Assembly: GCF_964213995.1 (NCBI RefSeq)
Contig: NC_135808.1
Coordinates: 50,468,001 to 50,532,000, forward strand
DNA length: 64,000 bases
Source: Mustelus asterias
Taxonomy: Eukaryota
Reading direction: 5' to 3'
The notes beneath the pieces were generated by a model. The model ran no database searches and was not told the origin of the DNA. It saw nothing but the letters and a program-made list of their open reading frames with translations. Position numbers and translations under genes: made by a program. Positions 8,551-61,936 of this stretch are shown here, in pieces (the stretch's first letter is position 1; each line of letters begins with the position of its first letter).

Positions 8551-9037
8551 CTTTATTATATATTATATAAAACTGTGGGATGTGTCAGTACAGGAGGTGG
8601 GACTGTGTGTCCATTATTATATATTATATAAAACTGTGGGATGTGTCAGTACAGGAGGTGGGACTGTGTGTCCATTATTATATATTATATAAAACTGTGG
8701 GATGTGTCAGTACAGGAGGTGGGACTGTGTGTCCATTATTATATATTATATAAAACTGTGGGATGTGTCAGTACAGGAGGTGGGACTGTGTGTCCATTAT
8801 TATATATTATATAAAACTGTGGGATGTGTCAGTACAGGAGGTGGGACTGTGTGTCCATTATTATATATTATATAAAACTGTGGGATGTGTCAGTACAGGA
8901 GGTGGGACTGTGTGTCCATTATTATATATTATATAAAACTGTGGGATGTGTCAGTACAGGAGGTGGGACTGTGTGTCCATTATTATATATTATATTAAAC
9001 TGTGGGATGTGTCAGTACAGGAGGTGGTGCTGTGTGT
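8551..9037. repeat. 61-bp minisatellite (~8 copies) in the V-J interval of cluster A
   Basis: Unit ctgtgggatgtgtcagtacaggaggtgggactgtgtgtccattattatatattatataaaa, near-perfect copies. Confidence 0.95.
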
Positions 9038-10914: not shown

Positions 10915-11210
10915 CGGGTGGTACAGTGGTCAGCACTGCTGCCTCATAGCGCCGGGGACCCGGTTTCAATTCCCAGCTTGTGTCACTGTCTGTGTGGAGT
11001 TTGCACCTTCTCCCTGTGTCTGCGTGGGATTCCTCTGGATGCTCCGGTTTCCTGTCACAGACGAAGGATGTACAGGTTAGGTGAATTCGCCATGCCAACT
11101 TCTCCCTCAGTGTACCTGAACAGTCGCTGGAGTTTGGTGACTCGGGAATTTTCACAGTAACTTCATTGCAGTGTGAACGTAAGCCTACTTGTGACTAATA
11201 AATAAACTTT
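10915..11210 (+). mobile_element. HE1-like SINE specific to arm A
   Basis: SINE head and V-domain; absent at the mirror site. Confidence 0.8.
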
Positions 11211-11243
11211 GCTTTTACTTTACATCCACCATGGTGTCCATGT

Positions 11244-11618
11244 CCCACTGGAGCCTCCAATAGGGACCAGTAAACATGGGCCTCCATCCCACTGGAGCCT
11301 CCAGTAGGGACCAGTAAACATGGGCCTCCTTCCCACTGGAGCCTCCAATAGGGACCAGTAAACATGGGCCTTCTTCCCACTGGAGCCTCCAATAGGGACC
11401 AGTAAACATGGGCCTCCTTCCCACTGGAGCCTCCAGTGGGGACCAGCAAACATGGGCCTCCATCCCACTGGAGCATCCAATAGGGACCAGTAAACATGGG
11501 CCTTCTTCCCACTGGAGCCTCCAGTAGGGACCAGTAAACATGGGCCTCCATCCCACTGGAGCCTCCAGTAGGGACCAGTAAACATGGGCCTCCTTCCCAC
11601 TGGAGCCTCCAGTAGGGA
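11244..11618. repeat. 44-bp minisatellite (~8.5 copies); a further partial unit at ~12503-12537 beyond a CR1 insertion
   Basis: Unit cccactggagcctccaatagggaccagtaaacatgggcctccat. Explains the repetitive ORFs at 11195-11668. Confidence 0.93.
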
Positions 11619-12502
11619 TCATAGAGGTTTACAGCATGGAAACAGGCCCTGCGGCCCAACTTGTCCATGCCGCCCTTTTTGTTTTACAACCCCTAAACGA
11701 ATCCCAATTGCTGCATTTGGCCCATATCCCTCTATACCCATCGTACCCATGTAACTATCTAAATGCTTTTTAAAAGATAAAATTGTACCCGCCTCTACTA
11801 CTACCTCTGGCAGCTTGTTCCAGACACTCATCACCCTCTGTGTGAAAAAATTGCCCCTCTGGACACTTTTGTACCTCTCCCCTCTCACCTTAAATCTATG
11901 CCCTCTAGTTTTAGATTCCCCTACCTTTGGGAAAAGATTTTGACTATCTACCTTGTCTATGCCCCTCATTATTTTATAGACCTCTATAAGGTCACCCCTC
12001 AGCCTCCTACGCTCCAGAGAAAAAAGTCCCAGACTATTCAGCTTCTCCTTATAACTCAATCCATCAAGTCCCGGTAGCATCCTCATAAATCTTCCCTGCA
12101 CTCTTTCTAGTTTAATAATATCCTTTCTATAATAGGGTGACCAGAATTGCACACAGTATTCCAAGTGTGGCCTTACCAATGTCTTGTACAACTTTAACAA
12201 GACGTCCCAACTCCTGTATTCAATGTTCTGACCGATGAAACCAAGCATGCTGAATGCCTTCTTCACCACTCTGTCCACCTGTGACTCCACTTTCAAGGAG
12301 TTATGAACATGTACCCCTAGATCTCTTTGTTCTGTAACTCTCCCCAACGCCCTACCATTAACTGAGTAAGTCCTGCCCTGGTTCAATCTACCAAAATGCT
12401 TCACCTCGCATTTGTCTAAATTAAACTCCATCTGCCATTCGTCAGCCCACTGGCCCAATTGACCAAGATCCCGCTGCAATTGGAGATAACCTTCCTCACT
12501 GT
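11619..12502 (-). mobile_element. Young 5'-truncated CR1 LINE inserted into the 44-bp array
   Basis: Open RT C-terminal frame (WQMEFN..KCEV, RPHLEYCVQFWSP); absent in arm B. Confidence 0.9.
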
Positions 12503-31835: not shown

Positions 31836-32880
31836 TTGATCAGTGTGTCCATATCAGACCTCTTGTCCCCAAGCAAAAGATACCATTGGCCCTGAAGGGG
31901 TTAAATCATTTTCTTTCAACATAAAGTAAAGGTTCTAAACCAATGTGCAAACTCCACACAGACAGTGACCCAAACCGGGAATCAAACCCAGGTCCCACTG
32001 TGCCACCTGGTTCTAAACCATGACCATGCTGTGGGAATAAAAATCTTCAGATCAATTCTCAGAGTCTTAATGCTGTCGGCAATCTTGTTCCATTTGTGGT
32101 TCTCTGAAAATAAAGACACAAGGTCCATTCTGCTCAGGGGAATGGATTCAGCAATCTGAAAGTTTAAGCAGTTGTTGCAAAGAGTTCACTCTGTGTTCGT
32201 CTGCAAGAGGCTGCTGCAAAGCTGCTTCATTTTCAACACAGAGAAAAGCTGGTGTATCTTTAGAGAACAATCAAACTCTGCTTTCTGGACAGAAATCTCA
32301 ACTCAAACCTCATAACTTCAAACTTTGCTTTGTTTCATTATATTGTCCTTGAATCCAACTCATTATCCACATTGTGAAGCTTCAAATTGCTGAAACTTCA
32401 CACACAAATGAGAAATTAGGGAAGGAAACACATGAAAGCTCACACACACAAATTCTTCATTGTACACAAACACACACACATAGAAAGATATGTATATTTC
32501 CATTCTGATAACAATTATATGAACAACATTAAACTTTCCGACTCAAAACAAAGCTACAAGTAGTAGTGGAGGGGGTGGGAGGAATCTTGGAGACTTCCAC
32601 CGACAGGAACAATCTAAACAGCCGAAGCTCCCATTTCCTCAGTCCCTGCCTGTCACTGCTCAAGAACGCCCCGAGGGGAACCCTCTCGGTCTGTCACTCA
32701 CTTGCCCTCTCTCATGCTCTCGCTCCCTCTCTCTCTCTCTGTGTCTCTCACGATCTCTCTCTCTCTCTCTCCTGGATTAAAGCTTTAGCGATTTGCAGCA
32801 AATGAATTCATTTTCACCTTTTTAATTGTTTGAAACAATTCAGTGAGTGACATTTTGAGTCCCCAATCTACATTTTTCCC

Positions 32881-33655
32881 TCTCACTCACTACACTTGAC
32901 ACCAGGAAACGGTTAATACCATTTTACTGCACTGTGTCACTCACTACACCTGTCACTAGGAAACGGTCAATACTGTTTTACTGCACCGTGTCTCTCACTA
33001 CACCTGTCACTAGGAAACGGTCGATACTGTTTTACTGCACTGTGTCACTCACTACAGCTGTCACTAGGAAACTGTCAATACTGTTTTACTGCACTGTGTC
33101 ACTCACTACAGCTGTCACTAGGAAACTGTCAATACTGTTTTACTGCACTGTGTCACTCACTACAGCTGTCACTAGGAAACTGTCAATACTGTTTTACTGC
33201 ACTGTGTCTCTCACTACACCTGTCACTAGGAAACGGTCGATACTGTTTTACTGCACTGTGTCACTCACTACACCTGTCACTAGGAAACGGTCAATACTGT
33301 TTTACTGCACCGTGTCACTCACTACACCTGTCACTAGGAAACGGTCAATACTGTTTTACTGCACTGTGTCACTCACTACACCTGTCACTAGGAAACGGTC
33401 AATACTGTTTTACTGCACTGTGTCACTCACTACACCTGTCACTAGGAAACGGTCAATACTGTTTTACTGCACCGTGTCTCTCACTACACCTGTCACTAGG
33501 AAACGGTCAATACTGTTTTACTGCACTATGTCTCTCACTACACCTGTCACTAGGAAACGGTCAATACTGTTTTACTGCACTGTGTCACTCACTACACCTG
33601 TCACTAGGAAACGGTCAATACTGTTTTACTGCACTGTGTCTCTCACTACACCTGA
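32881..33655. repeat. 54-bp minisatellite (~14 copies)
   Basis: Unit ctgtgtcactcactacacctgtcactaggaaacggtcaatactgttttactgca. Explains the 243-aa repetitive ORF. Confidence 0.95.
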
Positions 33656-34439
33656 AATGGGGTGAATGAAATGATTTGACTGAGATTGAAGTTAAAACAT
33701 TCATTATTAGCTAGAGAATGGACAAATGTAGAGATGAAGGCATGATGGGAAATTGAGCCAATGTTATTGGAATGAACAAGGTCACTGAATCTTCAAATCC
33801 CAGCCCAGCCCTTCAGGGGTGAGATCAGGAAACACTTCGTCACTTGGAGACTGGTGGAAATCTGGAACTTTCTCCCTGAAAAAAAGCTGTTGAGGCTGCG
33901 GGGGAGCCAATTGAAAATGTTCAAACTGAGCTTCCTCCATCTGTCTCTACTATCCCCAAGTCTTTGCCTCTTCTCTCACTGTTTGTGAAAACTCTCCTGT
34001 GTAGTCAGCTCATTCCGATTCCCGGGGGAAGAGGCTGGTCTTTGTGATGTGGAGGATTTGGGGGAGGTCAGATCGGGGTCAAAGATGAGGCCAATGTTGT
34101 AGAGAGTCTGGTTGAGCAGCAGACAGTGCTCAGGGGGAGGGATGGAGTTTGTATCGGGAGCTGAAGACCAATGGCTTTGATCTTCCCAATGTGTTTCCCA
34201 GTGAGCCTGGCTCCTCAGTCCTGACTGCTCTGAGCTGCTGTTCTTTTCACTGATTGGACAGTTATTGTTAGAGATTCAGGCCACAGCACAAATCCCCAAT
34301 GTCAAAAATAACTGCAAAGACTGTCAGATCGGAAGATTGAAACGTAACCAACAGAGGAAGTGAAAGAAGGAGCTCAGAGCAGCTGGATGTTTGTTACTGA
34401 GACGGGAGAAAATGGTGAACCGTGTCCACTACCTCCAAT

Positions 34440-36950: not shown

Positions 36951-38088
36951 AATTATTAAAAAGTTCTACATTACACAATGTCCCATTCTGTGTGTTGAAC
37001 TCTGGAACCTGTCGGCAGGATATTTGACTGCAGGAGCCTTCACCAGTGTCCAATTCTCACCCCAACTGAAATCCACACAGAACCTGAATTTATATAGCAC
37101 CTTAGTGTACAACACAGCCCAAGATGTTTCACAGAGCTGCAGTAAGGAATAGGGGTGGGAGGGGGTGGGGGTGGAGGAATGTTAAGAGGAGAGATTGAAG
37201 ACTTGGGTGAAAGGATAGAGTTTGATGGGGAGAGAGACATGGAGAGGGGGAGGGATTAGGGGTGGGAGGTCAGAGAGCAGGGCCTGGGCGTCTGAAGGCT
37301 CTGCTGTCAATGGTGGGATGAAGGAAGCAGCGATGGGCAGGAGAACAGAGTTAGAAGATGGAAGGTGAGGGAGGGAATGTGAGTCTGCAGAGGTAGGGAG
37401 GAGTGAGGCCATGGAGGGAATTGGAGGGCAGTGAGGTCAGGGGTAACAGGAGAGATTAAGTTAGTTAGGATTATATTCACTGAAGTTTGAGGATAAAGGG
37501 TAAACCTTTTAGAACTGAGGTGAGGAGAAATTTCTTCACCCAGAGGGTGGAGAATGTGTGGAATTCACTTTGACAGAATGGGGTTGAGGCCAAAACTTTG
37601 TCTGATTTCAAGAAGAAATTAGATATAGCTCTTGGGACGAAAGGGATCAAGGGATATGAGAGGAAGGGGGCGGATCAGGATATTAAATTCGATGATCAGC
37701 CATGATCAAAATGAATGGTAAAGAAGGCTTGAAGGGCCGAATGGCCTACTCTTGCTTCAAGATTCTATATTCCTATGTCACTGAGGTCAAGGGTAACATG
37801 TCAGTGAGGTCAGGGGTGATGGGTCAGTGAGGTCAGAGGTAGTGTTGGAACGACACTTGGTGTGAGACAGGGTCCGGACTCACTGCGTTTGGGACAAGTT
37901 CGGGTTTATGGAGTGTGGATGAAGGGAGCCGGGAGAGGATATCGGAATAATAGAGTTAGGAGGAGTGAGAAGCAGGGATAAGAGTCTCTGCGCTCATGGG
38001 GCTGATGTAGTGTAGAGACGGACAATGTTGTAGAGATGGAAATAAGAGGCCTACATGATGGAGAGGATGTGAAGTTTGAAGCTCAGCT

Positions 38089-38459
38089 ACTGGAGGCTCC
38101 AGTGGGAAGGAGGCCCATGTCTACTGGTCCCTATTGGAGGCTCCAGTGGGGAGGAAGCCCATGTTTACTGGTCCCTATTGGAGGGTTCAGTGGGAAGGAG
38201 GCCCATGTTTACTGGTCCCTATTGGATGCTCCAGTGGGAAGGAGGCCCATGTTTACTGGTCCCTATTGGAGGGTTCAGTGGGGAGGAAGCCCATGTTTAC
38301 TGGTCCCTATTGGAGGGTTCAGTGGGGAGGAAGCCCATGTTTACTGGTCCCTATTGGAGGGTTCAGTGGGGAGGAAGCCCATGTTTACTGGTCCCTATTG
38401 GAGGGTTCAGTGGGGAGGAAGCCCACGTTTACTGGTCCCTATTGGAGGCTCCAGTAGGA
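38089..38459. repeat. 44-bp minisatellite (~8.5 copies), inverted copy in arm B
   Basis: Reverse complement of the 11244 array, with arm-specific gagggttcagtggggagg variants. Confidence 0.93.
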
Positions 38460-39780
38460 CATGGACACCATGGTCGATGTGGAGCAGTTTCTTTATGTTA
38501 TAAATGTGTGATTGTTCACTTTTGAGGAATTCACAAAGTGGGTGAAGGGAACTTGTAGATGTGATATTTAGGGAATTCCAAAAGGTATTTGATAAATTGC
38601 CACATCAAATCTTGCTACACAAGATACAAGCTGATGGTGTGTGGGTAACATATTAGCATTAATAGAGGATTGGTTAGCGAACAGAGACCAGAGAGAGGGG
38701 TAAATGATTGTTTTGGGGTTGGGAAGCTGTAATTAGTGGAATTCTGGAACAATCAGTGCTGGGACCACAACTATTCACAATCCAGATCAATGACTTGGAT
38801 GAAGGGAGTGAATGGAGCTGATGTCCCAATGACAGCAGCATGGTCAGTGCAGGCTTAGAGGGTCGAAGGGCCTGTTCCTGTGCTGTAATTTTCTTTGTTT
38901 TTTGACACTAAGATAGTTGGGGAAAGTAAGTTATCAAGAGGAGATAGAGAGTCTGCAAACAGATGGAAACAAGGGAAGTGAGTGGCTAAACATTTGGAAT
39001 ATAACTGCGTAAATGTGAAGGTGTCCACTTTGGCAGGAAGAATAGAACAGCAGGAAACTATTGAAATGGAGAGAGATTGCACAACTCGGTGCTACAGAGG
39101 GATCTGGCTGTCCTGGGACATGAATCACAACAAGTTAGTCTGCAGCTACAGCAAGTGATTAGGAAGACAAATGGAATGTTGGTGTTTATTACAAGGAGAA
39201 TGGAATATAAAAATAGGGAAGTTTTACTGCAGCTGTACAGTGTCTCGGTGAGACCACATCTGGAATACTGTACATTTTGGTCTCCTTATTTGGAAAAGGA
39301 TATCATTGTGTTCGAAGCAGTTCAGAGAAGATTCACCCGACACATTCCTGGGGTGAGGGGTTATCTTATGAAGAAAAGTTGGACAGGCTGGGCCTGAACC
39401 CATTGGAGTTTAGAAGAATGAGAGGTGATCTTATTGAAACATATCAGGTTGTGAGGGGACTGACAGAGTGGATACCAGGAGGGTGGTGTCTCTTCTGGGG
39501 CAGAGTGAGATGAGTGGACAGATGGATAGAAGTGCTGGAGAGAAAGTGATGGAGAAGGAGAGCTGAACTGAGGAAGAGAGAGGGAGAGAATGATAAGAGA
39601 GAAAGAATGAGTGAAGGAGAGGGCAAAGAAGGAGAATAAGACAGGAACAACAAGAGAGAGAGACCGAGAGAGGGGGAACAGAGAGAGGGGGAACAGAGAA
39701 GGGTGAATAGAGAGAGCGGGAGCAGAGACTGAGGGACAGAGACTGAGGGACAGAGACTGAGGGAGGGAGAGAGAAGAAGA

Positions 39781-39880
39781 GGAAGTGAAAGGTGCTGACG
39801 TGGTTTCTCTGGGTCAGACCATTTACAAACTGAGGAACAGGCAGTGAGACTCTGACAGGCTGCAGCTTTATAAAGCAGAG
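39781..39880 (+). promoter_or_regulatory. V promoter, cluster B (mirror of cluster A promoter)
   Basis: GGAAGTGAAA 39781-39790, TGACGTGG 39796-39803, ATTTACAA 39821-39828, TATAAA 39869-39874. Confidence 0.65.
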
Positions 39881-39934
39881 CCCAGTGAAGGGAGAGTTTA
39901 TCAGTAACCAGGCACAGGGACACGACCACACACC

Positions 39935-39983
39935 ATGATTTCAGCCATCCAGCTGCTCTGGCCTCAGGCATTCTGCATCGCAG
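39935..39983 (+). CDS. Leader exon, cluster B (MISAIQLLWPQAFCIA-G); orphan, V exon deleted
   Basis: Mirror of 9556-9604 with one CTG>CAG (L>Q) change; ATG and GT donor intact. Confidence 0.9.
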
Positions 39984-40116
39984 GTACAAATCTCTCTCCT
40001 TCCACCTTGAATATTTTCCTGCTCTCCATTTCAATCCAATTCTCCTGACTTGTGATTGAAGGGAAAATGCTGAAAGGAGAGGAACAGTCAGTGTCTCCAA
40101 CAATATCTCATTGTAC
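39984..40116 (+). pseudogene. Truncated leader-V intron ending at the V-deletion junction, cluster B
   Basis: Matches the A intron up to ...tcattgtac, then runs directly into cacctcctgtactgac of the 61-bp repeat. Acceptor, V exon and 12-RSS are absent. Confidence 0.92.
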
Positions 40117-40713
40117 CACCTCCTGTACTGACACATCCCACAGTTTTATATAATATATAATAATGGACACACAGTCCCACCTCCTGTACTGACACATCCC
40201 ACAGTTTTATATAATATATAATAATGGACACACAGTCCCACCTCCTGTACTGACACATCCCACAGTTTTATATAATATATAATAATGGACACACAGTCCC
40301 ACCTCCTGTACTGACACATCCCACAGTTTTATATAATATATAATAATGGACACACAGTCCCACCTCCTGTACTGACACATCCCACAGTTTTATATAATAT
40401 ATAATAATGGACACACAGTCCCACCTCCTGTACTGACACATCCCACAGTTTTATATAATATATAATAATGGACACACAGTCCCACCTCCTGTACTGACAC
40501 ATCCCACAGTTTTATATAATATATAATAATGGACACACAGCACCACCTCCTGTACTGACACATCCCACAGTTTTATATAATATATAATAATGGACACACA
40601 GTCCCACCTCCTGTACTGACACATCCCACAGTTTTATATAATATATAATAAAGGACACACAGTCCCACCTCCTGTACTGACACATCCCACAGTTTTATAT
40701 AATATATAATAAA
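40115..40713. repeat. 61-bp minisatellite (~10 copies), cluster B
   Basis: Inverted copy of the 8551-9037 array. Confidence 0.95.
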
Positions 40714-41013
40714 GACAAGAAAGGAAACTGGACAAATTATTTGCACTGTCCACTACACACTCCAGTCCCTGTGGTGTCCACCGCTCGCTGAAGGCCTCGA
40801 GTTTCCCTCTTACTCTCCATGTCCACATATGAAGAGCAGCTGAAAGATTTATCATCTCAAATTAGAATTCTCAACTCTCCCGACAAAACACTGAGACATT
40901 GAGAGAAACAGAGAGAGAGAAACAGAGAGAGAGAAAGAGTGAGAGAGAAAGAGTGAGAGAGAAAGAGTGAGAGAGAAGAGATGAGTGAGTGAGTGAGTGA
41001 GGCAGAGAGCAGA

Positions 41014-41052
41014 GGTTTTTGTACAGCTCCTGCACTGGAAGCTGTCAGTGTG
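41014..41052 (+). other. 23-bp-spacer RSS of J, cluster B
   Basis: GGTTTTTGT (41014-41022), 23 nt, CAGTGTG (41046-41052); identical to cluster A. Confidence 0.95.
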
Positions 41053-41087
41053 CCTTACGTTCGGTAAAGGAACCAAACTCAGACTGA
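41053..41087 (+). CDS. IGKJ: Ig kappa-type J segment, cluster B (LTFGKGTKLRL)
   Basis: Identical to J of cluster A; GTAAGT donor at 41088. Confidence 0.96.
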
Positions 41088-41929
41088 GTAAGTAAAGCCC
41101 AATCCTCCGTTATTAACCCTTTCAATGCTGAAACTTTCTCAAACACAAATGCTGAATAGTTGAAGGTGTTGGTGAGGAAGCTGCAGTCAATGAAATGGTT
41201 GATTGAAGAACATTGTGTGGAACAGGGAGCCCAGCTGTATTTCTTTCCTTCCATTTCCCCCTTTAAGCAGCAAGATATAAGTAAGCAGCTTTTACCCACC
41301 GTGTGGAGGAGATCTGGACGTTTGCAGACTGTGCTCACATTCCTGCAGCATGGAGTGAAATCACTCTCTAGACTCCTGTCAGTCTCAGTGTGACACACAC
41401 AGGCAGAGTTTGATGTGAAGTCGGACTCCCTGTCACACTCTCTGGTATAACTGATCACAGCACCAGCACAGTGAGACACCGAGGTGCCACCTCCCCCAGC
41501 TTTCACTCTGCTCTCTCCACTCCCTGCTTATCTCTTGCTAAAGTTCTGATGACAAACAGCTACAGCAGGGCCCACAATCCAGTGGCTTCAGTGTTCCAGG
41601 CTTTTGGGGAGACTCTCAGTTACTTTCTCTTTGGGACGAGTTCAGTCCGATATTTATCCCGGATCCAACATCACTGAAAATGCTGATTGTTCTCATTGCT
41701 GTGTGTGGGATCTTGCTGTGTACACGTTGTGACCAATCCTCAGACAAGGTCCCTCATTTGTTAACTTCCTGAACCCGATCCCAATTTTGTTTTGCTCCTG
41801 GGTGAGGAGTAATCAGCTGGATCCCTGACTTTATTCAACCCCGCCCTCGATTGGTCACAACAAGGTTCATTTAAAATGGATCCCTTCACCCGTGGAAACC
41901 TTACACAGTCCACGTAATCCTTTATTCGC

Positions 41930-42265
41930 CTTTGAATCTCTACAGTGCAGAAGGAGGCTGTTCAGTCCATCGAATCTGTACCAACTCTCTGAAAGAGCTT
42001 CTTACCCAGGCTCCCCACCCTATCCCTGTAACCCTGCGCATTTACCATTGCTAATCCACTTAAAGAACACACTCGGGGCATTTTAGCATGGCCAATCCAT
42101 CTAACCTGTATTGAATTTTGGGAGGAAACTGGAGCACTCGGAGGAAACCTACACAGACATCAGGTTAACATGCAAACTCTACACAGGCAGTGACCCGAGG
42201 CCTGAATTGAACCCAGGTCCCTGGCTGTGAGGCGGCAGTGCTAATCACTGTGTCAACATGCCGCC
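41930..42265 (-). mobile_element. HE1-like SINE (partial mirror at ~6890-7110)
   Basis: SINE head and V-domain. Confidence 0.75.
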
Positions 42266-42389
42266 GCTCTTTTAATTTTTTAGAAGGAATTATTTTAACC
42301 AGGTTTTCTTGAATACGTTTATTAGTTACTAAATACCTGAGAAAATAATCAACATGTGAAACGCACACACTCTCGCACTGACTAGAAAT

Positions 42390-45300
42390 GAAAAGTATGA
42401 GGAGAGGTTGACTAGGTTAGGATTGTTTTCGCTGGAGTTCAGACGAATGAGGGGGTATCTCATAGAGACTTATAAAATTCTAGCGGGATGAGACAGGATA
42501 GATACAGGGAGGATGTTCCCGATGTTGGAGAGTCCAGAACCAGTCGCAGTCTGAGGATTCAGGCTAGACCATTTAGGATGGAGGTGAGGAGACATTTCTT
42601 CACCCAAAAAGTGGTGAGCCTGTGGAATTCATTGCCACAGGAAGCAGTTGATGCCAAAACATTGAATGTATTCAGGAGGCGGCTAGATATAGCACTTGGG
42701 GTGAATGGGATCTAAAGTTATGGGGAAAAGGCAGAATTAGGCTATTGAGTTGGATGATCAGCCATAATCGTAATGAATAGTGGAGCAGGCTCAAAGGGCC
42801 AAATGGCCTCCTCCTGCTCCTATCTTCTGTGTTTCTGTGTCTATGTTTCTACGTTTTCATAATTCTGTCTTGCTGCAGTTATACAGGGCCTTGGTGAGGC
42901 CACACTGGGAATATTGTGCACAGTTTTGTTCTCCTTATCTGAGGAAGGATGTTCTTGCTCTACATGGAGCGCAGACCAGGTTTACCAGACTGATTCCTGC
43001 GATAGTGGGACTGACGTATGAGGAGAGATTGAATTAGTTAAAGTTTATATTCACTGGAGTTCAGAAGAATGAGGGGGGAACTCAGAGAAACCTATAAAGC
43101 TCTAAAAGGTTCGGGGGATTAGTGAGGTAAATACATGGGGTTATGGGGTAAGAGTCGATGCAGACTCGATTGACCAAATGGACTCCGCCTGCACTTTAGG
43201 GATTCTATTGTCCATGTCTGTGCCGGCCACCAAGCACCTATCTATTCCAATCCCATTTTCCAGCCCTTGGTCCGTTGCCTTGTTTGCTTTGGAATTTATC
43301 TAAATGCATCTTAAATGTTGTGAGGGTTCCCACCTCCACCACCCTTTCAGGCAGTGAGTTCCAGATTCCCAACACCCTCTGGGTGAAAAGATTTCCCTCA
43401 AGACTCTCAAAATCTGCTGCCTCTATAATGAAGGGAAATGGTTCCTCGTATCTGTCTTGCTGCAGTTATAGTAAGATGTCGATATGCGCGATCTCCTTGG
43501 AGATTCTCTCCACTTGGAGCCCCAGTTGCGGTGTCGATGGTAGCCATGATATGGAGATGCCGGCGTTGGACTGGGGTGTCCAATGCCGGCATCGCCACAT
43601 CATCGCTGCAGTTATCCAGGGCCTTGGTGAGGCCACACTGGGAATATTGTTTGCAGTTTTGGTCTCCTTATTTGAGGAAGGATGTTTTTGCAACGGAGGG
43701 AGCACAGCAAAGGTTTACCAGACTGATTCCCGGGATAATGGACTGATGTAGGAGGAGAGATTGTTTTGGTTAAGATCATATTTGCTGCAGTTCAGAAGGA
43801 TGAGGGGAATCACATAGAAACCTATAAAATTGTAACAGGACTAGACATGGTAGTTGCAGGAAGGATGTTCCCAATGGTGGGATTGTCCGTGGTGGGTTCC
43901 GTGGTGGGTTCCAGGGGTCACAGTCTGAGGATACGGAGTAAACCTTTTAGGACTGAGGTGAGGAGAAATTCCTTCACCCAGAGAGGCGTAAACCTGTGGA
44001 ATTCACTACCACAGAAAGCAGTTGAGGCTAAAATATTGTATGTTTTCAAGAAGGAGTTAGATTTAGGTCTTGGGGTGAATGGGATCAAAGGATTTAGAGG
44101 TAAAGCAGGATCTGGATACTGATTGGATAATCAGCCATGATCATGGTGAATAATGGGGCAGGCATGAAGGGCTGAGTGGCCTCCTCCATCTCCTATTTTC
44201 TGTGATTCTATGCAGACCAGCATTTATTACCCATCCCTAATTGCCCTGGTGAAGATGGTGCTGAGGTGGTGGAATAAGTTCTACTCCAATGAGTATTGGC
44301 CCAACCTGCTCAAGCTTTCCTCATAAGACAATCCATTACTCAGTGGAATCAGCCTCGTGAATCTTCTCTGAACTCTTTCCAATGCTACTATATCCTTACT
44401 TGGGAATGGAGACCAAAAGTGTCCACAATATTCCAGGTGTGATCTTCCCAACGTGCTGTACAGCTGGAGTAAGACATCCCTACTTCTATACTCATCCTCA
44501 TTGGAATGAAGAACAACATTCCATTTGCCTTCCTAATTTTTTGCTGTTCCTGGATGCAAAGACACACAGATCACTCGATAGAATCTCTCCAGTTTACTAG
44601 TATTCTGCTCTATCCTCTTGCCAAAGTGGACAACCTCACAATTTCCCACATTATACTCCATCAGTCAATGTTTTCCCACTCACTGAATCTACCTCTATCC
44701 CTTTTCAGACTCTGTATTCACCTCACAACTTGCTTTCCTACTAATCATTTTACCATCAGCAAATTTAGCGACAATCCTCTCATTCCCTTCATCCAGCTCA
44801 TTAATATAGATTGTAGAGTTAAACCCCAAACAACAACCATCTTCCTATGTGCTGGGTATAACTCCAGCCAGCACAGAGTTTTCCCCCCTGATTCCCATTG
44901 ACTCCAGTTTTGCATGGACTCCTTGATGCCACACTTGGTCAAATCCTGCCTTGATGTCAAGGGCAGTCACTCTCACCTCACCTTTGGAGTTCAGCTCTTT
45001 TGTCCACGTTTGAACCATCTGGGAAAAAGCTTCCCACCGTTCACCCTATCTGTGCCTTTCATAATTTTATACACCTCTATTAGGTCACCCCTCATCCTCC
45101 GTCTTTCCAGTGAGAACAACCCCAGTTTACCCAATCTCTCCTCATAACTAAGCCCTTCCATACCAGGCAACATCCTGGTAAACCTCCTCTGCACTCTCTC
45201 TAAAGCCTCCATGTCCTTCTGGTAGTGTGTGGTGACCAGAACTGGGCGCAGTATTACAAATGCGGCCAAACCAACATTCTATACAACTGCAACATCAGAT

Positions 45301-45690
45301 CCCAACTTTTATACTCTATGCCCCGTCCTATAAAGGCAAGCATGCCATATGCCTTATTCACTACCTTCTCCACCTGTGACGTCACCTTCTAGGATCTGTG
45401 GACTTGCACACCCAGGTCCCTCTGCATATCTACACCCTTTATGGTTCTGCCATTTATCATATAGCTCCCCCCTACGTTAGTTCTACCAAAATGCATCACT
45501 TCGCATTTATCTGGATTGAACTCCATCTGCCATTTCTTTGCCCAAATTTCCAGCCTATCTATATCCTTCTGTAGCCTCTGACAATGTTCCTCACTATCTG
45601 CAAGTCCAGCCATTTTCGTGTCGTCCGCAAACTTACTGATCACCCCAGTTACACCTTCTTCCAGATCATTTATATCAATCACAAACAGCA
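42390..45690. mobile_element. Nested CR1 and second-family LINE fragments in the J-C intron of cluster B
   Basis: RT motifs on both strands; 45015-45690 CR1 is specific to arm B. Confidence 0.8.
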
Positions 45691-47750
45691 GTAACAGCAA
45701 TAACATTGTGAATAATCAAGATTAGACTGATGGGATGGTTATTGTGTGGATTGGATTTGTCCTGTTTGATGTGGACAATTCATAACCAGGCAATTTTCCA
45801 CATTGCCGGGTTGATGCCAGTGTTGTACCTGCACTGGAACAGCTTGGCTCGGGGCATGGAATGTTCTGGAGCACTAGTCTGCAGGACTTCCGGAGGAGGT
45901 CGAGCTGGATCATCTACTCGGCACTTCCGGCTAAAGATTACTGTGAATGCTTCAACCTTATCTTTTGTACTGATGGGCTGGGCTCCTCCATCATTGAGGA
46001 TGGGGATATTTGTGTTGCCTCCTCCTCCAGTGAGTTGTTTAATTGTCCACCACCATTCACTGGATATGGCAGGACTGCAGAGCTTTGATCTGATCCATTG
46101 GTTGTGGGATGGTTTAGCTCTGTCTATCACTTGCTGCTTCTGCTGTTTGACACACAGTCCTGTGTTGTAGCTTCACCAGGTTAACACCTCATTTTTCAGT
46201 ACATCTGCTGTTGCTCCTGCCATGTCCTCCTGCACTCTTCATTGAACTGAAAGCAGCAGAGAATCCACAGAAACGGAATGATGCTTCAAATCCCACTCCT
46301 GAGATGGTGGTGGCAGATGCTATACAAATGTATTTCTGTCTTCGAGCTTGTGGATTCCTGATCCTTGCCCATTGTCCACACACTCGCAGCCTCCAGGGTT
46401 CATGGGGGCTTTTGGAACAGTGACCCTGACTGATCCCCGGACACTGGGACTAATTCTAGCCTCACCCTTAAACTCAGCCAAGTGCTGTGCGGTAAGGTTT
46501 GCAATGAAATCTAGAAGCTTCTACACTGACAGCCAATCAGAATCCTGTGTGAACTGTGTTGATCCAAGTCTGCTGCAATGTTCTGGGATAAAGTTCTCCT
46601 GATCTGTGTGTGATCTGTGGTTTGTTGATGCTCAACCTGTTTCCCCCAGACAGACTGAACAATAGTTCCAGCTTCCTGACTGGTTAACAGTCTCTTAAAG
46701 GGACACTGTGTCTTTAAATACTCTCACTATTAACCATTTCAGTGCTGAATTTGTAGTAACCTTCTTTACAAATGTTTCAGTAACATTGCAAAATGATTCA
46801 ACCAGCTTCAAATCAAACCTTTACCCCCAGACACTGAACTACTTTGAAATCCAACTTGTCACTTTCCCTCGGACCCCATCAGCTTTTAATTTTAAACAAT
46901 GGTACAGCATTATCCGTCCTCCAGTCCTCCCACACCACACCTGTAGCCAGAGAGGATTGGGAAATAATGGTCAGAGTCTCTGCTTTTTCTTCCCTTGCTT
47001 CCCTTCGCATCCTGGGATACATTTCACCTGGGCTTGGGAATTTTTCCACTTTCAAAGATGATAAGAACATTAATATCTCCTCCCACACTATCATTATCCC
47101 ATTAATTATTTCACAATCTCTCTCCTCCTGAAGTACAATGTCAGCTTTGTCCCTCTCATTTGTGATATCGAATGTAAATTATTCGTTCAGAACCATCTCT
47201 GTGCCTTCCCCCTCCACACACAAGTTACCTTGTTGCTCTCTAATCAGCCCTATTCATTCCTTAGTTATCCTCTTTGCAATGTCCCACGCTATTGCTTTGT
47301 TTGAACATATTTGTTCTGAACTCTATCTCCAGCTCGAATATCCTCCCACTGCTCTGACACTGATTTACCTTCAAGTCGCTGTTTCCGGTTCATTTTGCCA
47401 AATTCCAGTTGAGTGAAATTGGCCTTTCCCCAAGTTAAAACATTTACCCTTGATCGATCTTTCCTCTTTTCCATAGCTACTCGAAATCGTTAACTTTATG
47501 ATGATCATTATTACCCAAATGTTCCCCCACTCATACACCTTCCAGCTACCCAGATTTGTTCTCTAAAATTACCCAAAACTGCCCCTTCTCTTGTTGGGAT
47601 TGTTCCGTACTGGTTAAAAAATTTCCCTGGAATAGATTTTCGGAATTGTGCAATGTTGAAACATTGACACTGATTTGATCCCAGTCAATATTCGGGAAGT
47701 TGAAAACCCTGAAAATGGCAGTGATTAAAATTCCTTCTCTTCTCTTTCAG

Positions 47751-48079
47751 CCCGTGAGAATTCACAACCCACGCTGACCCTGCTGCCCCCCTCCCCGGAG
47801 GAGGTCAAGACCAAGGGCACTGCCACCCTGGTGTGCCTTGCCAATCACTTCTATCCCGATGAGGTGGAGGTGAAGTGGAAGAAGGACGGTGCAGCCATTT
47901 CCAACGGGATTCAGACCAGCAACTACCTGCGAGCTTCAGACAACACCTACAGCGTCAGCAGCCTGCTGACCCTCTCTGGCTCCGACTGGGAGTCCAACGC
48001 CCGCTTCTCCTGTGCCCTCACCCACGTCAGCCTCTCCTCGCCCCTCAGCAAGAGCGTCAGGAGATCAGAATGTGCCTAG
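47751..48079 (+). CDS. IGKC: Ig kappa-type constant exon, cluster B, intact
   Basis: Acceptor tctttcag|CC and open to TAG. Differs from C-A by N>T, V>I, S>R and one silent change. Confidence 0.96.
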
Positions 48080-48563: not shown

Positions 48564-48652
48564 AATAAACCTCCATTCTCCCTGTGAATTTCTCCAGCTT
48601 CCTCTGGCTGGGCTGTTTTTTCTGTCAATGTCAATGTGTAAAAGGTAATAAA
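48564..48652 (+). terminator. Two AATAAA polyadenylation signals 3' of C (cluster B)
   Basis: aataaa at 48564-48569 and 48647-48652. Confidence 0.6.
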
Positions 48653-57195: not shown

Positions 57196-57523
57196 TGTGG
57201 TGAACCATCTTTGGTTCCCACTAGATAGTACTGAGCCAGGGTCTGGCCAGTACTACAAGTATGTATATATGTTGCTGTTGGGGTTAGGGATGGGTTGTTC
57301 TACTTGTTGCTGTTGGAGTTAGGGTTGGGCTGTTACACCTTGTATTATAGTTATTGTGGTACATCCCAGTCGGGCTCCGCCTCCTGGGAGAGGTATAAAG
57401 GTCTCTGCTCTGTCTGGGACCCCTCAGTCTGGGATCGTGTATATAATTAGTAGCTGCCTTGTTACAGCAAATAAAAGCCTTTATTTCCTGAGCATCAAGC
57501 CTCGTGTGTGTTAACGCGCATCA
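57196..57523 (+). repeat. 5' LTR
   Basis: tgtggtgaacc...gcgcatca; 5 differences from the 3' LTR. Confidence 0.95.
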
Positions 57524-60500
57524 ATTTTATTTGCTGTAAATAAACTCTCGTCGAAGAAAAAAAAAGAGAGTATGGAGCAGATACTGAAGCCTGAACGCCT
57601 TACACTAGATCCACGTGCGGTGGGCGCCTCTAACACCTTCGACCACTGTTTGAAATGTTTTGAGGACTACCTGGCAGCCTCCGCAGCGGTCACCACAGAT
57701 GATGACAGACTCCGGGTCCTCCATGCGAGGGTAAGCGACACCGTCTACCTCGCGATCCGTGCGGCCACCGACTACACAAAGGCCCTCGAGCTTCTTAAGA
57801 AGCATTATATTAAACCGTCCAACGAAATACACGCTCGTTACCTCTTCGCCACTCGACGACGGTAGTCTGGCGAAACGATGGAGGAATACGCGAACGAGCT
57901 CCTACAGCTAGCCAGGGTCTGTAACTGCAAAGCAGTGTCGGCAGAGCAGAATATGAACGACCTCGCTCGAGATGCGTTTGTGGCGGGAGTCGGATCATCG
58001 TACATCCGACTCAAACTACTGGAGAAAGGTAACCTTGACCTTACCCAGGCAATCGAGCTAGCGGAGATGCTGGAGACGGCCTCCAAAAGCCTAGTACTGT
58101 ATCCTGAAGACCACGTGGAGACAACGTGGCAGGAGCAGTCGCCAATCCCTCCTCGTCCCTCGGGTTCGAAATGCTGCGTAATGGCGTGCTCACACTCGGG
58201 CCAGACGACGGCAGCAGCTCCGGGCGGCCCGCGGTGTTACTTCTGTGGGGGAGCGAAGCATACTCGGCAACGGTGTCCCGCTAAAGTTGTGTTGTGCTCC
58301 GCCTGCGGTAAGAAGGGGCACTATTCGAAAGCGTGCCGATCTAAATCTGCTTCTCGGAACAGCAGTGCGGCCTGCGATTCCTCAGAGCCCGGTTCTTCGT
58401 CGTCGACATCGTCGAGGGTTTCGTCCACGTGCGAGGCCAGGACGACGCCATTACAGTCGACGGAGTCGGAGATGTGTGACCACCAGGGGTCGCTGAGTTT
58501 GGCGCCATCACCCACGTGTGACCTATGGGAGCGGCCATGTTGGTCGGCACCGACCGCGAACGACCAGCAGGGGTCATCCTCGTCGATTTCAGCTGCCTGC
58601 AGTGGCGCTCATGAACCAACGGTGGCGTTGATCATCCTGGACCAGGCCAAGCCTCATAGACTTGACAAATCTATGATGGACATTCAGGTAAACGACCACT
58701 TGATTTATTGTCTGTTTGACAGCGGGAGCACTGAGAGTTTTATCCACCCAGACGCTGTGAAGCGGTGTGGACTCCGGATTCAACCTGTCAAACAGACAAT
58801 TTCTATGGCATCAAGGTCCCGGTCTGTCACCGTGCTAGGGAGTTGCGTGGTAACTTTAACGGTGCAAGGCACAGTTTACGAGCGTTTCAAGCTCCTGGTG
58901 TTGCCGCACCTTTGCGCGCCAATACTTCTCGGACTAAACTTCATGGTCCACCTGAGGAGTGTAACCCTACAGTACGGTGGGTCACTCCCTTCGCTTTCAG
59001 TGGGAGAACAGCAGCCTCCAAAGTGCCCTGTAGCCTCTCGACGCTGAAGATTACCACACCCTCCCTGTTCCAGAATCTTGTGCCAGGCTGCAAGCCCATT
59101 GCGACTAAGAGTAGGCGTTACAGCGCTGAGGCTCGGATCTTCATTCGATCTGAAGTTCAGCGGCTCCTCAAGGAAGGGATCATACAACCTAGCGCTAGTC
59201 CGTGGAGAGCGCAGGTCGTGGTGGTCAAGAGTGGGAACAAACCCCGGATGGTCATTGACTATAGTCAGACCATTAATAGATACACGCAGCTGGATGCGTA
59301 TCCCCTCCCGCGCATATCTGACATGGTCAATCAGATTGCGCAGTACCGGGTGTTCTCCACCATAGACCTCAAGTCTGCCTGCCACCAACTCCCCATTCGC
59401 CCAGAGGACCGACAATACACGGCTTTTGAGGCGGATGGTCGCTTGTATCACTTTCTCAGGGTTCCCATTGGTGTCACCAATGGGGTCTCGGTCTTCCAGC
59501 GTGCTATGGACCGAATGGTGGACCAGAACGGGCTGCGGGCTACCTTCCCGTACCTGGATAACGTCACCATCTGCGGCCATGACCAGCAGGACCACGGCAC
59601 AAATCTCCTGAATTTCCTATGCACTGCATCTCGCCTGAATCTGACCTACAACAGGGAGAAGTGTATGTTTCGTACGCGCCGTTTAGCCATCCTCGGATAC
59701 GTGGTGGAAAACGGGGTCATTGGCCCTGATCCAGACCGTATGCGTCCCCTCTCTGAACTTCCCCTGCCCACTAGTGCAAAAGCACTGAGAAGTTGCTTAG
59801 GCTTCTTCTCTTATTATGCACAGTGAGTTCCCAATTACGCGGACATAGCCCGTCCGCTCATCAAGTCCACTTCTTTTCCCCTAACACCAGAGGCCCGATT
59901 GGCCTTTGATAAATTAAAAGCCGACATCGCGAAAGCTACGATGCACGCTGTTGATGAGTCCATCCCCTTTCAGGTGGAGAGCAATGCATCTGATTTCGCC
60001 CTGGCCGCCACACTTAACCAGGCGGGCAGGCCCGTCGCCTTTTTTTCCCGCACCCTCCAAGGCCCCGAAATTCGGCACTCCGCGGTGGAAAAGGAGGCCC
60101 AGGCCATTGTGGAGGCCGTTAGGCACTGGCGCCATTACTTGGCGGGAAAACGGTTCACCCTGATCACGGACCAGCGGTCCGTGGCGTTCATGTTTAATAA
60201 CACGCTGAGGGGCAAGATCAGGAACGACAAGATCTTGCGGTGGAGAATTGAACTCTCCACCTATATCTATGACATCATGTATCGTCCAGGGAAACTCAAT
60301 GAGCCCTTGGATGCCCTCTCACGTGGAACATGCGCCAGTATACAGGAGGACCGTTTGCAGGCTCTCCATAATGACCTATGCCATCCTGGGGTCACTCGGC
60401 TCTACCACTTTATAAAAGGCCGCAATCTGCCCTACTCGGTGGAGGACATCAGGTCCGTAACAAGAAGCTGTCGGGTTTGCGCGGAATGCAAACCGCACTT

Positions 60501-61608
60501 TTACCGACCTGACCGGGCACAATTAGTCAAGGCCACTCGTCCCTTCGAGAGACTGAGTGTCGATTTTAAGGGCCCTCAACAGATCGAAATGTGTACTTCC
60601 TCAACATCATTGATGAGTACCCGAGGTTCCCTTTTGTTGTTCCCTGCTCTGATACATCCGCTGCCACGGTTATCAAGGCATTCCGTGATCTTTTTACCCT
60701 GTTCGGGTACCCCAGCTACATTCACAGCGACAGGGGCTCGTCGTTCATGAGCGATGACTTGAGGCAATACCTGCTCTCATACGGGATTGCCTCTAGTAGA
60801 ACCACGAGCTACAACCCTAGGGGTAACGGACAGGTGGAACGGGAGAATGCTACAGTCTGGAAGGCTGTCTTACTGGCGTTGAAGTCAAAAAGCCTTCCAG
60901 TCTCCCGTTGGCAAGAGGTGCTCCCTGATGCGCTCCATTCCATACGCTCACTCCTGTGTACGGCAACCAATGCTACTCCCCATGAGAGGATGTTTTCATT
61001 CCCTCGGAAGTCTTCCTCTGGGACCTCATTACCGTCTTGGTTGACGTACTCAGGACCTGTCCTCCTGCGGCGACATGTAAGGGCCCGCAAGTCCGACCCT
61101 TTGGTTGAACAGGTCCATCTCCTCCACGCCAACCCTCAGTATGCCTATGTGGCATACCCTGACGGGCGAGAGGACACGGTCTCGATCCGAGACCTGGCGC
61201 CAGCAGGGGACGTGGAAACCCCTGTCGCTCCCATACCCCCTGTTACAACCCCCATAACTCTTGTTTCCCCACCGGACACGGCGCGGGCAGCATCGGGACC
61301 ATTACTTAACCCTTTTACTCCCGTGTACAGCTTGCCTGAGTCCAGAGGACGGTCGCCACTTCAGGGCGTGTCGGAACTCCATGGATTACCATCAACTCAG
61401 GGTCAACCGGCCCGTGAGTCTGTGGAGGAACAGTTGGACGTCGCCTTGAGGAGAACGCCACTGCAAGTGCCTACTCCGGTGTCATCGCCGGTATTGAGGA
61501 GGTCGCAACAACGGTGCGGTCCCCCTGACCGTCTGAACTTATAGACTGATGACAAATTATTCTGTTTTTTTGTACCCCGCCGGCCTTTGTCTTCAAAGGA
61601 GGGGTGAA

Positions 61609-61936
61609 TGTGGTGAACCATCATTGGTTCCCACTAGATAGTACTGAGCCAGGGTCTGGCCAGTACTACAAGTATGTATATATGTTGCTGTTGGGGTTAG
61701 GGATGGGTTGTTCTACTTGTTGCTGTAGGGGTTAGGGTTGGGCTGTTACACCTTGCATTATAGTTATTGTGGTACATCCCAGTCGGGCTCCGCCTCCTGG
61801 GAGAGGTATAAAGGTCTCTGCTCTGTCTGGGACCCCTCAGTCTGGGATCGTGTATATAATTAGTAGCTGCCTTGTTACAGCAAATAAAAGCCTTTATTTC
61901 CTGAGCATCAAGCCTCGTGTGTGATAACGCGCATCA
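61609..61936 (+). repeat. 3' LTR
   Basis: Direct repeat of 57196-57523, preceded by the PPT. Confidence 0.95.

Follow-up and report, generated by a model that had tools for sequence, protein, structure and literature searches.

The closest described relatives of the locus analyzed here are the nurse shark NS4 and horn shark type III light chain genes, in which leader, V, 12-RSS, spacer, 23-RSS, J and C follow one another and the leader intron measures 186 bp (PMC2193156). According to that work, NS4 clusters are numerous and near-identical, and pseudogenes are common among them, owing to stop codons, frameshifts and bad splice sites. Chains deprived of a V domain are known from other systems. 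The eutherian lambda5 (IGLL1) is a lambda-derived J strand and C domain with a unique N-terminal region that is positively charged; it needs VpreB as a partner (PMC9614664). The sterlet IgL4 gene, of the sigma type, is a fish light chain gene made of leader, J and C. According to its published description, the gene is transcribed, as supported by cDNA and 5'RACE, its elongated J exon is flanked by typical AG/GT sites and is devoid of a functional RSS, a distinct V-only gene is its partner, and 83% identity is conserved over ~185 My; a convergent, surrogate-like role was proposed (PMC5985310). In mice, skipping of a non-productive VJ exon in single cells splices the leader in frame to C kappa, and the resulting V-less chains are described as causing ER stress and plasma-cell loss independently of the heavy chain (PMC4710196). 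In spiny dogfish and nurse shark, alternative splicing of ordinary IgW heavy chain genes joins the leader directly to a C exon, as reviewed in PMC5192425; shark cells are thus capable of such a splice.

The window, i.e. the whole stretch of 64,000 nt that was analyzed, contains two Ig light chain clusters placed head to head in a long inverted repeat: cluster A (minus strand, 9604-668) and cluster B (plus strand). From its sequence, cluster B is assigned to the shark Ig kappa class (NS4-type) as a V-J-C cluster minus its V. A human JC-kappa 'surrogate' protein, reportedly put forward by Frances in 1994 and Rangel in 2005, is said to be encoded by germline kappa J and C and to have been proposed as a partner of mu; it reportedly originates from the normal unrearranged locus and not from a V-deleted duplicate. 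Cluster B shares with NS4 the layout of its remaining elements and a J matching the JL5 primer site at 17/18 positions, while its defect differs from those of the NS4 pseudogenes, being a germline loss of V, acceptor and 12-RSS (PMC2193156). Like IgL4 it comprises leader, J and C, but it is of the kappa class, has no typical J acceptor, keeps its 23-RSS and is young (2.4-2.8% from V-bearing sisters). The likeness to lambda5 would hold if a weak AG before J were used; the RSS layout is nevertheless of the kappa type, and four residues would stand between the leader and the FGKG motif in place of the unique region. The product predicted for a leader-C splice is the same as that of the mouse V-less transcripts, with the difference that the loss is inherited in cluster B and the protein is only predicted; the IgW case concerns a heavy chain. 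A V-deleted shark kappa cluster is not described in the literature searched, the coverage of which mostly excludes subscription journals. The V deletion is real, young and inherited and has been copied to three clusters; our preferred reading, with a probability of roughly 0.75, is that cluster B is a pseudogene with a possible leader-C by-product.

Cluster B and the kappa array

The kappa V-type promoter and 5' UTR of cluster B (39781-39934) display the majority sequence of 21 clusters, which is matched over the 155 nt preceding the ATG. They include what we take to be an Ets-IRF-like site (39781-39790), an octamer-like site (39821-39828) and a TATA-like element (39869-39874). The octamer-like site at 39821 carries 2 mismatches and is also present in sister clusters; no consensus octamer was found within the 64-kb window. 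The leader exon (39935-39983, ATG at 39935) contains 16 codons and 1 nt, ends in phase 1 and is followed by a GT donor and by the first 133 of the 186 nt of the leader intron (39984-40116). Comparison with cluster A and with the 21 clusters places a deletion junction at 40116/40117, with at least 396 bp lost. The minimal deletion, corresponding to A 9422-9027, covers the final 53 nt of the leader intron, with its acceptor, and continues through the V exon and 12-RSS into 16 more bases. The sequence-only reading of this DNA, which had reported an intact promoter, ATG and leader donor and a deleted V acceptor, was accurate on these points. The join displays 1-2 nt of microhomology and runs straight into the 61-bp minisatellite of the V-J spacer (40116-40712, 9.8 copies, AATAAA at 40647 and 40708). 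Further downstream are found an intact J 23-spacer RSS (41014-41052), the J segment (41053-41087) with its FGKG motif and a consensus donor at 41088, and the C kappa exon (47751-48079), which encodes 108 aa, is open and retains the C-terminal Cys. Two AATAAA polyadenylation signals lie 3' of C (48564-48652). The V exon with acceptor and the 12-RSS, both defining a functional rearranging kappa gene, are missing, and cluster B is presumably unable to rearrange on its own. Cluster A, the deletion reference, is intact: leader 9604-9556, V 9369-9071, 12-RSS 9070-9043, 23-RSS 8027-7989, J 7988-7954 and C 996-668. The J-C intron is rich in LINE-like fragments, and further minisatellites with 54-bp and 44-bp units, together with a 99% identical direct repeat at an offset of 4,413 bp, are located at 32775-33776, 37999-38526, 11199-11682 and 57196-61908 of the window.

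The V-bearing sister clusters each consist of one leader, V, J and C, with a split leader and the 186-bp intron. The 12-spacer follows V in 18/18 V-bearing sisters and the 23-spacer precedes J, including in cluster B. In a PDB search, a sister V aligned with antibody light chain V domains over 1-96, some of which are named kappa, and the C exon matched Ig C domains; these matches confirm the Ig domains and leave the isotype unfixed. A 97% identical public VJC fragment indicates that the J-C junction is in use. When the C exon was searched against proteins (lengths 59-189), 2 of 17 candidates passed an E value of 1e-30, both being ordinary VJC fragments; no leader-C protein was present among the candidates of this length range, which does not imply its absence. 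These fragments are of shark kappa type, with 97% and 84% identity to the C of cluster B, yet they are labeled as Aeromonas and Salmonella proteins in public databases, probably as a result of contamination.

In the organism's own genome, matches were obtained to C (22), leader (21), J (21) and V (18); they share a single contig, where they lie within ~0.92 Mb, as confirmed by a scan of 992 kb. The 22 C exons extend over G000:C8:50169000-51087000, the first 16 alternating in strand as head-to-head units of ~75 kb, and blocks of 10-52 kb recur at 99.5-99.9% identity with offsets near 75, 150, 226 and 300 kb. The AT-rich 61-bp minisatellite is present in every V-J spacer (40116-40712 and 8553-9037 in the window) with 4-59 units, so that V and J are 0.9-4.2 kb apart; the final unit contains AATAAA in 21/21 clusters, a possible end of sterile V transcripts. 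Among individual variants, the cluster at G000:C8:51007872-51008615 (minus strand) carries an insertion of ~400 bp in the leader intron with V and RSS otherwise intact, and the J nonamer at G000:C8:50731498 differs by one substitution from those of the other 20 clusters.

The identical deletion junction occurs in 3 of the 21 clusters of this 0.9-Mb array. These V-less clusters form one clade in both the J-region and the C-region trees (21 rows each; support 100/96 and 100/99). Over the J-C interval, the V-less copies diverge by 0 and 0.42%, as compared to 2.35-2.76% from the two nearest V-bearing clusters. The twin of cluster B is letter-identical over 16,339 bp, within a block of 51.6 kb at 99.79% identity; a direct comparison of 9,901 bases likewise gave 9,901 identities. 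The third copy shares a block of 20.2 kb at 99.47% identity and is distinguished from cluster B by 30 substitutions over 7,086 bp, by 14 instead of 10 repeat units and by a leader Leu that is retained. The deletion has a single origin and was copied along with blocks of 20-50 kb; the single clade and low divergence therefore argue for one young germline deletion spread by duplication of such blocks.

The leader exon sequence is invariant in 19 of the 21 clusters. The sole change, T>A at 39966 (Leu11Gln), is shared by cluster B and its twin, and is younger than the deletion, since the third V-less copy is devoid of it. The substitution had been proposed to weaken the signal peptide; it is real and lowers the best 11-residue mean hydropathy from 2.19 to 1.53. 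As a single event it constitutes weak evidence, the direction of which points to decay. The C acceptor of the third V-less copy (G000:C8:50590729) displays an A>T change ~24 nt upstream, near the likely branch-point position, which is absent from the other 21 C exons.

Possible uses of the remaining J and C

Among the rivals to the pseudogene, the one that survives best, improbable as it is, holds that cluster B has been retained to serve as a spare J-C cassette, with a 23-RSS joinable to the V of cluster A by inversion of 9071-41052 in order to yield a normal light chain. The 23-RSS, J and C are intact and the 12-RSS of cluster A is oriented for inversion. In addition, the array contains a precise head-to-head signal joint (G000:C8:50402750-50402816, minus strand), lying between V and J and made of a 23-RSS and a 12-RSS that have different spacers. 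Its upstream flank matches two other minus-strand clusters at 99.6% over 19.4 kb, beginning exactly at the joint, and its closest paralogues reach 99.9-100% on this side; the downstream flank is mixed, with mostly 96-99% matches. Since the flanks have different closest paralogues and the switch falls at the joint, the latter is suggestive of two clusters having been joined by RAG, likely in the germline, and thus of at least one past join of this kind. Joints of this type were proposed by Lewis and Wu, whose article lists evidence from sharks for other outcomes only (PMC2193153). The signal joint makes the spare cassette conceivable but leaves the deletion of cluster B unexplained. Against the cassette, shark IgH rearrangement is reported to stay within the minilocus, with one possible exception in 97 events (PMC2435157). 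Moreover, a spare J of the same kind is available in every V-bearing cluster, so that the deletion adds nothing, and no joined VJ exists in the array, where 18/18 V keep their 12-RSS; the nurse shark differs in this respect.

Slightly less probable still is a functional surrogate, i.e. a rearrangement-independent leader-C or leader-J-C chain pairing with the heavy chain. Cluster B would then represent a surrogate being born, a V-deleted kappa cluster now in three copies whose product would cap the heavy-chain CH1 in B-cell precursors, as an incipient equivalent of what IgL4 is in sigma and lambda5 in lambda. Both reading frames are open and keep the heavy-chain-linking Cys, three copies are retained, and IgL4 provides a precedent (PMC5985310); the human JC-kappa surrogate that has reportedly been described points the same way. 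The role is moreover vacant, as a review of shark immunoglobulins treats lambda5 and VpreB as not known in fish (PMC5192425).

The frames themselves carry little weight. As had been predicted, the leader ends and C starts in phase 1, so that leader-C is in frame (125 aa) with its terminal Cys, and leader-J-C through the AG at 41047-41048 (leader, 41049-41087 and C) gives an open product of 138 aa with the same Cys. The leader exon nevertheless measures 49 nt in 21/21 clusters and the C start is the same in 22/22; any loss of V therefore yields an in-frame leader-C. None of the features cited is special to cluster B, the phases being the family's own layout. Given this norm, and given that 5 of the 52 AGs located within 300 nt of the J donor also provide an open in-frame product, the frames are not evidence of design. 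The heptamer supplying the AG had been regarded as a variant; the AG is indeed there, but the heptamer deviates from the textbook consensus only, the same one preceding 21/21 J. An intact C was likewise considered as a mark of selection and rejected: an open frame is found in each of the 22 C exons, even in an orphan C (G000:C8:50977572, plus strand) upstream of which no match to leader, V or J exists. The open C of cluster B is for this reason attributed to youth or homogenization and not to selection.

Splice strength was estimated from the number of pyrimidines in 15 nt and the length of the AG-free zone, which are crude counts and not a trained model. On this scale, the true V acceptor scores 13 with a 33-nt zone, the true C acceptor 15 with a 27-nt zone and the heptamer AG 7 with a 5-nt zone. 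The weakness of the heptamer AG, suspected from the outset, is thus borne out: 162 of the 466 AGs between the leader donor and C outscore it on both measures, and no new acceptor precedes J in cluster B, the 23-RSS of which has the majority sequence. Two rival AGs, ending at 41026 (after the nonamer T run) and 41041, lie ahead of it and are out of frame, leading to peptides of 29 and 24 aa. The predicted leader-J-C product, with a mature mass of 13.3 kDa, would include an extra Cys, provided by the heptamer, among its four residues before FGKG, which leaves no room for a charged unique region such as that described for lambda5 (PMC9614664). No VpreB-like, non-rearranging partner was found in the 992-kb region, all 18 V retaining RSS and J, and the 21 clusters include no dedicated V-only gene. 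A lineage of <2.4% divergence also contrasts with the ~185 My of conservation given for IgL4 (PMC5985310). With no sign of selection or age either, the lambda5-like leader-J-C chain that had been envisaged is poorly supported.

The simpler leader-C message fares better and is mechanically plausible, the splice being documented elsewhere. Leader-C would be the likeliest coding product, with a predicted mature mass of ~11.7 kDa, because pyrimidine content is highest at the C acceptor among the 466 AGs downstream of the leader donor. V-bearing clusters could yield an identical leader-C joint through exon skipping. It may face competition from eight intronic AGs having a score of at least 13 and a zone of at least 20 nt. 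The AG at 40060-40061 is preceded by an AG-free stretch of 76 nt and could, with the AATAAA at 40647 or 40708, define a short terminal exon (46 aa). Since unrearranged Ig loci of sharks are described in reviews as producing sterile transcripts, chiefly in neonates (PMC5192425), transcription of cluster B is possible. Should a B cell open the promoter, the chance that leader-to-C RNA could be detected appears to be slightly below even.

Origin of the deletion

An assembly error at the edge of the minisatellite was also considered and is judged as improbable as the surrogate. The junction adjoins the 61-bp array, and the twin, letter-identical over 16,339 bp, could itself be a false duplication. 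Of 22 public runs matching 39780-41300, four were compared over 39800-40170. Three of them covered the minisatellite end alone; no bridging of the junction was observed in the runs tested, where the intron was equally uncovered, and they therefore speak neither for nor against the junction. A single leader contig, from a presumed RNA run of another organism, continues into V, as in a normal leader-V splice; its foreign origin deprives it of any bearing on cluster B. On the other side, the base-exact junction is found again in the third copy, in spite of its 30 substitutions, other repeat number and other leader codon, and, over its 51.6-kb block, the twin shows 89 mismatches as well as 20 gap positions. 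An assembly slip would hardly reproduce the junction to the base on two distinct backgrounds. The repeat array is not expanded in the V-less copies (10, 10 and 14 units) with respect to the V-bearing clusters (4-59). The same numbers led us to reject repeat expansion as the cause of the V loss.

The deletion is best explained as a germline event through ordinary end-joining, because the breaks fall off the RSS borders and the nearby cryptic heptamers are devoid of nonamers. Excision of V by RAG acting in the germline, the least probable of all the rivals, has precedents in the germline V(D)J joining described for nurse shark NS4 (PMC2193156) and in the signal joint of the same array, and was rejected on account of neither break being at a heptamer border, of the entire 12-RSS and 16 nt being missing and of the three CAC-starting heptamers 14-62 nt from the left break having nonamers with 5-8 mismatches.

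Fate and meaning of the V-less clusters

One deletion, presumably germline, took out the V exon with its acceptor and the 12-RSS, and was copied to three clusters along with duplication blocks. Under the pseudogene reading, if a B cell opens the promoter, the leader donor would find no proper partner nearby. Cryptic AGs or the AATAAA of the spacer would claim the transcripts, unless these were spliced to the C acceptor 7.8 kb away. In the latter case, a free C domain of 11.7 kDa would be produced, similar to the ER-stressing by-product of mice, and the Leu-to-Gln change in the leader would worsen its by-product character. Cluster B is likely without selected function. Several points run counter to a pseudogene. 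Promoter, ATG, donors, C exon and polyA signals are intact in the three copies retained, the third of which also has a normal leader. The lineage is too young for either decay or selection to show, the Leu-to-Gln change being a single event, and sterlet IgL4 must presumably once have looked like cluster B.

The surrogate reading, if correct, would have consequences for how heavy chains are tested in animals devoid of lambda5 and VpreB, a question presented as open in two reviews (PMC5192425, PMC9614664). Nothing indicates that cluster B serves as a surrogate light chain, and a constant-domain fragment arising as a by-product is likely the most it provides. If cluster B is ordinary, as judged here, it offers a clean example of birth-and-death evolution in an array of shark Ig clusters, and annotation as a pseudogene is warranted. 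It is also of modest use as a natural experiment on the firing of a shark kappa promoter, and on the splice partner of its leader, without rearrangement, two of the three V-less copies being tagged by the variant at 39966.
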